Assembly (NCBI GenBank): GCA_029567195.1
Contig: JAKQLJ010000038.1
Location: 1-62,298, forward strand
Direction of reading: 5' to 3'
Length of the DNA stretch: 62,298 nucleotides
From: a bacterium
GTDB taxonomy: Bacteria; Patescibacteriota; Minisyncoccia; Moranbacterales; UBA2206
In this document: positions 5,288-6,656 of the stretch, piece after piece
Layout: every line of letters starts with the position of its first letter
Numbering within the stretch: position 1 is the first letter of the stretch
Made by a program: the position numbers and the translations under genes
The notes under the pieces: generated by a model
Told to the model about the DNA's origin: nothing
The model's database searches: none
The model's input: the letters and a program-made list of their open reading frames with translations, nothing else

Positions 5288-5509
5288 TCAGTTTCGAGTG
5301 GGGGGGTCGTTCAAATTGGCAAAGCAAAGAGATTTTCTTTCGCCTTTTTCATCGCACACTGTTACTGGTGATTTACATATCCCGTTAATAATGTCAGTGC
5401 CGCCACAGCGGGGACATGTTGCCGTGTTAACAACGCTTTTTTTTCTGAGGGTTTTTTTCGCCCCATCTTGTAAATTTCTCAGTTTATCCTCATCTTTTGG
5501 AAAAAACAT
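5288..5509 (-). CDS. Small Cys-rich protein, 73 aa (CPRCGG, Zn-ribbon-like)
   Basis: GAGGAGG SD 5' of ATG; five Cys including a CxxC. Confidence 0.65.
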   Translation of the reverse strand: MFFPKDEDKLRNLQDGAKKTLRKKSVVNTATCPRCGGTDIINGICKSPVTVCDEKGERKSLCFANLNDPPTRN

Positions 5510-5565
5510 AGCATTTACCTCCTCTGTATTTTTGTATTAAAAGTACTGATTGAAGAAAAGAAATC

Positions 5566-5586
5566 AAAAAACCGCCGCCGGCGGTT
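5566..5586 (-). terminator. Attenuator-type terminator of leader unit C
   Basis: AACCGCC-GGC-GGCGGTT followed by a T run. Confidence 0.7.
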
Positions 5587-5613
5587 GTCTTTTGGTTCGA
5601 TTTTCTTTTCTTT

Positions 5614-5691
5614 CTACGAACGCTTAAAAACAACCGCTTGGCGAATGGCGAGCAATAGTAGGCCTAGCAAATTGTTTTGTCGTTTGTTCAT
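5614..5691 (-). CDS. Putative leader peptide C, 25 aa (MNKRQNNLLGLLLLAIRQAVVFKRS)
   Basis: Manual translation; ATG lies 6 nt after a -10 box; its 3' end is complementary to the terminator arm. Confidence 0.55.
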   Translation of the reverse strand: MNKRQNNLLGLLLLAIRQAVVFKRS

Positions 5692-5697
5692 AATAAT

Positions 5698-5726
5698 AAT
5701 TTAATACGGCTATTATTTTTTGTCAA
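5698..5726 (-). promoter_or_regulatory. Sigma70-type promoter of unit C
   Basis: TTGACA-N17-TAAATT. Confidence 0.6.
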
Positions 5727-5826
5727 ATAAAAAAACTCCATACTAAACAGCGTAGTGAATAAATCCATTTCTTATTTCAACCAAGCTATGATTTGCTGCT
5801 TTCCAATAATGATCCAACAAAAAAAC

Positions 5827-5972
5827 CCGTCATCCTGAGCGAAGTGAAATTGGGGTAGCGATTGAACGTAGTCGAAGGATCTGCCAATTAATATCAAAAC
5901 CAGCAATTCTATTTAGTAGATTCTTCGGCTTCATCTCGTCCTAAACGGACTCGATTCCGCTCAGAATGACGG
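5827..5972. repeat. Palindromic REP-like element, GTCATCC...GAATGAC family
   Basis: Terminal IR CCGTCATCCTGAGCGAA / TTCCGCTCAGAATGACGG and inner IR CGAAGGATCT / AGATTCTTCG. Confidence 0.8.
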
Positions 5973-6005
5973 TAAAAAGAAACACGCTATTTGTTAAAGA
6001 GCCAT

Positions 6006-6475: not shown

Positions 6476-6534
6476 TTTTCCCTCCTTTTATTTTCTATTT
6501 TTCTAAATTGCTTTTATTTAGTTTAAAAAAGAAC

Positions 6535-6605
6535 AAAAAAACCGACTGCCGTCGGGTTGATTTTAGATATTTTTTAAAAAGTAAAATCAACTCGACGATG
6601 GTCGG
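6535..6605 (-). promoter_or_regulatory. Antiterminator/terminator switch of leader unit B
   Basis: CCGACCATCGTCGAGTTGATTTT can pair with AAAATCAACCCGACGGCAGTCGG (20 of 23 positions). The latter contains the terminator CCGAC-GGCA-GTCGG plus a T run. Confidence 0.7.
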
Positions 6606-6649
6606 ATAATAATGGTAATAATAATTTGGCTTAACAGGTTCTTTTTCAT
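6587..6649 (-). CDS. Putative leader peptide B, 20 aa (MKKNLLSQIIITIIIRPSSS)
   Basis: ATG 7 nt after TATAAT; six Ile codons within seven positions. Confidence 0.6.
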   Translation of the reverse strand: MKKNLLSQIIITIIIRPSSS

Positions 6650-6656
6650 TTAATTT

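Follow-up and report, generated by a model that had tools for sequence, protein, structure and literature searches.

A probable leucine-responsive leader-peptide attenuator ahead of a zinc-ribbon microprotein gene in a Moranbacteria genome

On the minus strand of the stretch of bacterial DNA that we analysed (the window; 62,298 nt, contig JAKQLJ010000038.1), a short leucine-rich reading frame lies between a promoter and an intrinsic terminator, ahead of a gene for a small Cys-rich protein, and the question that this locus, here called unit C, raises is whether the frame senses leucine, encodes a peptide that matters in itself, or is there by chance. [quoted passage not shown] In the present case the same logic would operate in a CPR bacterium of ∼0.8–1 Mb in which LeuB, a marker enzyme of leucine synthesis, was not found. 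A sequence-only reading had proposed that the 3′ end of the leader sequesters the terminator, with Leu codons as the sensor, and had named a type I toxin-like membrane peptide as the alternative. We consider it probable that unit C works as a transcription attenuator with a leader peptide and the classical four segments, that it responds to leucine and that its mRNA is leaderless, and we infer that the ORF is translated, that ribosomes stall on it, and that termination and read-through actually occur. The elements of unit C all lie on the minus strand, and all of their coordinates were re-read by script:

5698 to 5726, minus strand: sigma-70-type promoter, TTGACA (5726–5721), 17-nt spacer, TAAATT (5703–5698), with 10 of 12 matches in a promoter scan
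5614 to 5691, minus strand: leader ORF of 25 codons plus TAG, MNKRQNNLLGLLLLAIRQAVVFKRS, its ATG 6 nt past the −10 box and without a Shine-Dalgarno sequence (SD)
5650 to 5670, minus strand: putative regulatory codons 8–14, TTG CTA GGC CTA CTA TTG CTC (six Leu)
5666 to 5678, minus strand: segment 1, AAAACAATTTGCT, pairing with segment 2 in minimum-free-energy (MFE) folds
5617 to 5637, minus strand: segment 2, GCGGTTGTTTTT (5637–5626) plus GTTCG (5621–5617), the left arm of the predicted antiterminator, within codons 19–25
5581 to 5599, minus strand: segment 3, CGAAC (5599–5595) plus AAAAGACAACCGC (5593–5581), the right arm of the predicted antiterminator
5566 to 5586, minus strand: intrinsic terminator found by a terminator scan and kept in orthologues, AACCGCC-GGC-GGCGGTT (5586–5570), then T6 (5571–5566)
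5518 to 5522, minus strand: GGAGG, the SD of the controlled gene, 43 nt past the U-run
5288 to 5509, minus strand: the controlled gene, for a 73-aa Cys-rich zinc-ribbon protein (MFFPKDED...CPRCGG...)

The promoter is kept in orthologues of unit C (TTGACA and a TAAATT-like −10 box), and the promoter scan found no promoter-like site between the terminator and the 73-aa gene. With its ATG 6 nt past the −10 box and no SD, unit C probably has a leaderless mRNA that starts at or next to the start codon; a sequence scan found the same arrangement, with the ATG 6–7 nt after the −10 box and without an SD, in most units of the family described below, unit C included. Leaderless mRNAs may be common in this host, since its leuS gene (contig C10:42657, plus strand) has TTGAAA-17-TAAAGT followed 7 nt later by the ATG, with no attenuator. 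Unit C is no assembly artefact, as three more assemblies, made independently, carry the identical sequence. Four of the six Leu codons of the leader are CTA or CTC, the two rarest Leu codons of the host genome (4.8% and 8.1% of Leu codons, respectively).

The pairing of the leader's 3′ end with the terminator-overlapping sequence, described earlier as 12 + 5 bp, is present on the minus strand where it had been placed. Its core helix (GCGGUUGUUUUU with AAAAGACAACCGC) has 12 bp, i.e., 11 Watson-Crick pairs and one G-U pair, and the second helix joins GTTCG (5621–5617) to CGAAC (5599–5595) over 5 bp. The claimed overlap with the left arm of the terminator is likewise there: the last 6 nt of segment 3, AACCGC, belong to both the antiterminator helix and that arm, and the terminator itself is a GC-rich stem of 7 bp with a loop of 3 nt and U6. 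Besides the probable leaderless start and the order-wide family membership given below, a further element goes beyond the sequence-only reading and comes from folding: a hairpin between segments 1 and 2, AAAACAAUUUGCU (codons 5–9) with AGCGGUUGUUUU, which completes the classical four-segment layout (1, 2, 3, 4) of the trp/leu type. The computed energies are −12.4 kcal/mol for 1:2, −19.1 for the core of 2:3 (−23.5 with its extension) and −10.2 for 3:4; the fold of the whole leader has z = −2.4 against shuffled sequences, with 3 of 200 shuffles equally good. Folding puts 99.6% of the free RNA at equilibrium in the antiterminator form, and an ‘off’ state would therefore need kinetic trapping by 1:2 or a closely following ribosome.

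A complement of this length to a terminator arm is rare in the host genome. For each of its 138 terminator-like sites we took the longest gapless upstream complement to the left arm plus 8 nt; the mode was 6 bp, and 12 bp or more was reached at only three sites, namely unit C, a further attenuator of the family, with 16 bp, on contig C17, and a REP doublet. The last of these (C28, ∼24073, minus strand) has an attenuator-like score and was rejected as a false positive of the control, being a doublet of the GTAG type, with the sequence tgtagggacagacc...ggtctgtcc / ggacggat...atccgtccctaca.

The folds also bear on the reading that unit C is nothing but a constitutive long-stem terminator, or the palindromic remnant of a mobile element, with the ORF a chance frame. 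The MFE hairpin (nt 41–120) ends at the U-run, to which the long hairpin can be extended by UCGCC/GGCGG, so that it might terminate by itself unless a ribosome sat on about codons 11–14; moreover, the host genome is rich in palindromic REP/MITE elements. However, BLAST of unit C against its own genome and family found no second copy, only promoter- or terminator-like fragments, and the unit is syntenic, orthologous and upstream of the same gene family in five genomes. A constitutive stop between a conserved gene and its only promoter would, in addition, silence that gene. We therefore regard this reading as extremely improbable.

How a translating ribosome would act on a leader-peptide attenuator of this design was modelled by masking 30 nt, an assumed footprint, around each A-site codon and refolding the RNA. 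With the ribosome on codons 2–14 of unit C, the minimum-energy fold of the model contains the antiterminator and lacks the terminator, and with the ribosome anywhere between codon 15 and the stop codon the terminator is formed. In all ten Leu-type units available (see below) the model goes over from antiterminator to terminator at a point inside the Leu run or directly behind it, and in one of them, from another family (G114), the switch logic is kept with different sequences. The register of a classical attenuator, in which a ribosome on the regulatory codons frees segment 2 and one at the stop codon covers it, is thus reproduced by the model in the ten units.

We propose that transcription would begin with the A of the ATG or a neighbouring nucleotide and that a 70S ribosome would load onto the 5′ end. 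With ample Leu-tRNA(Leu), the ribosome would pass the Leu run, reach the UAG stop and cover segment 2, leaving segment 3 to pair with segment 4; the resulting 7-bp/U6 terminator would end a transcript of ∼125 nt. With Leu-tRNA(Leu) scarce, the ribosome would stall on codons 8–14, melt 1:2 and leave segment 2 free, the much stronger 2:3 helix would take up the left arm of the terminator, and RNA polymerase would go on to transcribe the 73-aa zinc-ribbon gene, which lacks a separate promoter. Since 2:3 is the favoured helix at equilibrium, a leader that is not translated would be switched off only if 1:2 trapped segment 2 kinetically.

The ten Leu-type units span eight genera of the family and include one unit of a second family within the order (G114) and one on a metagenome contig (L099); their leaders read as follows:

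Unit C: MNKRQNNLLGLLLLAIRQAVVFKRS
G210: MKIFQNNLLLLLIAQHPVVVLKIS
L099: MQTHQNNLLLLLFPTRGGCFEHC
G155: ..QNNQAQLLLLDLSNPAVILKRA
G186: MRNRLDNLLLLLLTQHPVVVFRVS
G240: MRNQINNLLLLLLTQHPVVVFRIS
G036: MKTFQNNFLLLPTRHPAVVLKFS
G176: MRNLKNNLLLSIRSNGGCF
G194: MNQIINNLLLLLLSPHAVVVSFRS
G114 (another family): MKQSITQNLLQLLLLNRTSLGDCWRA

A run of 3–6 Leu occupies the same place, codons 8–15, in every one of them, written in differing mixes of TTG, CTA, CTT, CTC and CTG and interrupted by G, Q or D only (with one F at the start of the run in G036), and the residues on its N- and C-terminal sides vary. The shared Ile-Arg near the C-terminus of leaders B (of the neighbouring unit B) and C, to which the sequence-only reading had drawn attention, is present in both and is not kept in the orthologues of C, so we take it to be a coincidence. 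L099 and G176 translate segment 2 in another frame, its nucleotides being kept (GGCGGTTGTTTT), and in all ten units the frame is open to segment 2 or beyond. Since the Leu run is kept despite codon turnover and the nucleotides of segment 2 are kept across frames, selection acts on the amino acid in the former and at the RNA level in the latter. Such a pattern is the signature of a leader-peptide attenuator rather than of a peptide with its own function or of an RNA without a coding role.

Covariation was counted in a MAFFT alignment of eight units that was fitted to no structure. Helices 1:2 and 3:4 together are 92.5% paired, as compared to 35–60% with the partner slid, with four pairs changed on both sides and a covariation score reached by none of 500 shuffles. 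Three pairs in helix 1:2 are changed on both sides (8 sequences), and helix 3:4 has one co-varying GC/AU pair, seen in 3 of 8 sequences. For 2:3, the values are 84% against 36–66% when slid, with one co-varying pair and a shuffle control that was not significant, so that covariation points more weakly to this helix than to 1:2 and 3:4. One position moves in step across segments 2, 3 and 4, which read either GCGG / CCGC / GCGG or GUGG / CCAC / GUGG (C/G/C vs. U/A/U). Folding, ribosome masking, covariation and the orthologues thus uphold the earlier proposal that the leader's 3′ end competes for the left arm of the terminator with Leu codons as the putative sensor.

The same comparison weighs on the reading in which the ORF is incidental and unit C is a non-coding leader, i.e., a terminator/antiterminator under the control of a protein or ligand, or a small RNA gene with a terminator of its own. 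Conservation of segments 1–4 as RNA, with a peptide tail that is not conserved as protein, would fit it, and a promoter and a terminator ∼125 nt apart would also suit a small RNA gene. Nevertheless, most units place the ATG 6–7 nt behind the −10 box, in none of the ten does the frame close before segment 2, synonymous changes have left the Leu run intact, and the downstream gene has no other promoter. No Rfam match was found either: unit C had none among the leader families, including Leu_leader (RF00512), even at E up to 10, and units A and B gave only sub-threshold matches to Phe_leader and Trp_leader. We consider the reading of the ORF as incidental improbable.

The promoter, ATG spacing, segment logic and terminator of unit C (together, the chassis) also carry leaders for other amino acids. 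Ile-run leaders are found in unit B and its orthologues, which keep the Ile run, and Phe/aromatic-run leaders include FFFYFFF, YFFFFWF, FWFYFY and, on contig C17 of the host genome, YSFYYFFFWFF. Further leaders contain RRRR, NNNQNNN or CCCC runs or Pro codons, and there are mixed Ile/Leu/Val leaders of 30–37 residues. At locus L094 (genome G217), argS (TIGR00456 at 302 bits, above the cut-off) follows 120 nt behind the RRRR leader, and a glutamate-5-kinase-like gene (with proB as its best NCBIfam match, below the cut-off) comes directly after Pro-codon leaders. ProRS genes near Pro-type leaders were considered as targets and were not counted as regulated because they have promoters of their own. 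Most units precede genes for small proteins without assigned function, among which several show Cys pairs or zinc-ribbon motifs. These sister leaders suggest a set of amino-acid-specific sensors on one chassis. The loci of three types are:

L057 (G094), L045/L048 (G222/G166), L098 (G055) and L070 (G186): Pro-codon, CCCC and NNNQNNN sister leaders

Two side observations concern such units in the host genome. A fourth unit of the chassis lies outside the window at C17:9933–10145 (plus strand), with an aromatic run in its leader MANSRNQNLYSFYYFFFWFFNQAGFGFEKIKA, a 16-bp complement to the terminator arm and a small ORF of ∼65 aa behind it; its ATG stands 19 nt after the −10 box, so this unit is not leaderless. 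In unit B (window 6530–6655, minus strand), the minimum-energy fold is a single long hairpin, closed at its base by CCGAC/GUCGG directly next to the U-run, and its ‘antiterminator’ may thus itself terminate unless a ribosome covers the 5′ side; the hairpin of unit C (UCGCC/GGCGG) reaches the U-run likewise, less cleanly than that of unit B.

One chassis that carries runs of chemically unrelated residues, each run built on a single amino acid, speaks for ribosome stalling at specific codons and against a membrane peptide. In the latter reading, unit C would be a gene for a small hydrophobic or membrane peptide, type I toxin-like or another micropeptide, with hairpins that only stabilise or end its mRNA. 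The basic N-terminus and the LLGLLLLAI core are what such a peptide would show, and some units of the family encode TM-like leaders of 32–37 aa. However, with 9 residues the hydrophobic core falls short of the length needed to cross a membrane, within the Leu-type units the run admits Leu only, with no exchange for Ile, Val or Phe, and the same chassis carries RRRR, NNNQNNN or CCCC. The alternative pairings co-vary as well, and the promoter scan found no plus-strand promoter where an antisense RNA to the ORF would start, so that the antisense partner expected of a type I toxin was not found. The toxin-like alternative of the sequence-only reading thus did not hold up, and we judge a membrane-peptide gene of any kind to be very improbable.

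Relatives of unit C, the probable attenuator, reach well beyond the host, and it took synteny and covariance models to bring them out. The 87-aa protein encoded by the neighbouring unit B has one homologue, in another genus of the family (G210), where a 10-kb region is syntenic and contains units A′, B′ and C′; behind C′ stands a gene for a 66-aa protein that is 41% identical to the 73-aa protein. Covariance models were built from these two C units and then from eight. With them, the chassis was detected in 34 of 71 family genomes (E up to 1), in 31 of 319 genomes of the order (E up to 0.001) and, outside the order, in a single further unit among 401 genomes of the class; all of these counts are lower bounds, and absence is weak evidence, because the searches score 6–8 candidates per genome. 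A degenerate pattern scan of all GTDB species was discarded since its matches were mostly unrelated terminators. By these comparisons, unit C is a member of a large, diversified, order-wide family found mostly in Moranbacteria.

The controlled gene is less familiar than its leader. Its 73-aa product has no Pfam or NCBIfam match and only 4–5 relatives among 5.8 billion proteins, and belongs to an orphan family confined to Moranbacteria. Members begin with M(F/Y)F(P/Q)(E/K)D and share a CPxC motif, which is CPxCG in 4 of 5. A Leu-type leader stands directly before the 73-aa gene and its four relatives (5 genomes, syntenic), and since all five family genes are so placed, the pairing of leader and gene is conserved. 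Its weak matches within the order proved to be ribosomal protein L32, which we considered as a relative: the 73-aa protein is colinear with bL32 over its first 46 residues (NTATCPRCG vs. NTATCPKCG; M-x-x-P-K start), with an N-terminus that is acidic where that of bL32 is basic. We rejected it because the hhalign probability was only 39.5% and the likeness is at the level of a generic zinc ribbon. Sequence matches in the PDB are generic zinc ribbons too, and the AlphaFold model is poor (pLDDT 59).

In a classical attenuator the controlled gene makes or charges the amino acid that is sensed, and for unit C we found no such gene. The 73-aa gene has no known leucine link, and Iso_dh/LeuB was not found in the host genome (an 87%-complete assembly) and is present in 14 of 14 control genomes; both points count against our reading. 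The tRNA-Leu inventory of the same 87%-complete assembly is incomplete.

These points would be expected if unit C read general translation capacity, or the coupling of ribosome and polymerase, and the Leu run were merely a slow stretch, since the geometry needs only a lagging ribosome and any delay of the leading one would give read-through. On the other hand, codon turnover has left the run specifically Leu in all 10 orthologues, and the runs of sister units are each made of another amino acid, with one of these units standing before argS, the cognate synthetase gene. We thus consider this reading unlikely, albeit the least improbable of the rivals. Our confidence in a leucine-responsive attenuator stops short of certainty mainly for another reason, i.e., that Streptomyces Leu/Ile leaders of similar look failed mutational tests of classical attenuation (PMC1262725).

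Set beside known systems, the design of unit C is classical, and its host, probable leaderless start and controlled gene depart from the classical attenuators. Like leuL (Rfam RF00512, Leu_leader), trpL, pheL, hisL, thrL and ilvL, it has a short ORF with tandem codons, the 1:2, 2:3 and 3:4 pairings and an intrinsic terminator, and a stalled ribosome would, in the masking model, free its segment 2 as it does theirs. Unlike leuL, it is probably leaderless and has no SD, sits in a CPR host, and has a zinc-ribbon microprotein instead of leuABCD as its output; its predicted antiterminator is also far stronger than its terminator, which is not so in classical attenuators. In the library that we searched, no paper connects leader-peptide attenuation to CPR or Patescibacteria.

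Leader-peptide attenuation beyond biosynthetic operons is exemplified by pheM-pheST in gamma-proteobacteria and by the attenuators predicted before trpS and leuS in Streptomyces (PMC1262725), which the sister RRRR unit before argS resembles. Unit C differs from these in not standing before leuS, and the leuS promoter of its host is plain, with a probably leaderless mRNA. The leaderless polycysteine short ORFs of mycobacteria (the ‘ribulon’), which act on translation and not on a terminator (bioRxiv 10.1101/834739), share with unit C a putative sensory short ORF, which in unit C is probably leaderless too, a run of a single amino acid and several loci with one sensing principle; the switch of unit C, in contrast, would be an intrinsic terminator, and the targets of its family are mostly microproteins of no assigned function. 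As in T-box riboswitches, the signal would be the charging of one tRNA and the output a terminator or antiterminator, whereas unit C has no specifier loop, T-box sequence or Rfam match and would sense through the translating ribosome. With type I toxin-antitoxin systems it shares a small ORF with a hydrophobic core and a strongly structured mRNA, and it differs in having neither a TM-length segment nor an antisense RNA gene and in belonging to a family with charged and polar runs.

It is tempting to go further, tentatively and at rather less than even odds, and to see in unit C a module of a Moranbacteria-order ‘ribulon’, in which one portable chassis of promoter, leaderless leader and terminator has been adapted, by a change of codons, to no fewer than seven amino acids (Leu, Ile, Phe/aromatic, Arg, Asn, Cys and Pro). 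An auxotrophic, host-dependent cell could thereby read the charging of single tRNAs and would answer mainly with fast-evolving zinc-ribbon microproteins as amino-acid-specific starvation effectors (e.g., on the ribosome, RNA polymerase or the host), and only occasionally with a synthetase or a biosynthetic enzyme. If unit C works as proposed, reduced symbionts monitor individual charged tRNAs, unannotatable microproteins gain a first functional handle as products induced by starvation for one given amino acid, and a compact set of natural, orthogonal amino-acid sensors is added to those known.

Two further observations concern the flanks of unit C. Upstream, at 5750–5990 of the window (minus strand), a long inverted repeat, ccgtcattctgagcg ... 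cgctcaggatgacgg, lies between the terminator of a 53-aa gene and the unit C promoter, and it looks like the palindromic mobile elements common in the host genome. Downstream, at 5540–5566 (minus strand), the sequence directly past the U-run is TTTTTTGATTTCTTTTCTTCAATC in unit C, and in many units this stretch is conserved as TTTTTTAGTTCTTTGA(A/G)AA or TTTTGTTTTCAACG (loci L042, L054, L059, L079, L082, L085, L093 and others); it might act as a distal terminator element, be a site of processing or mark the edge of a cassette.
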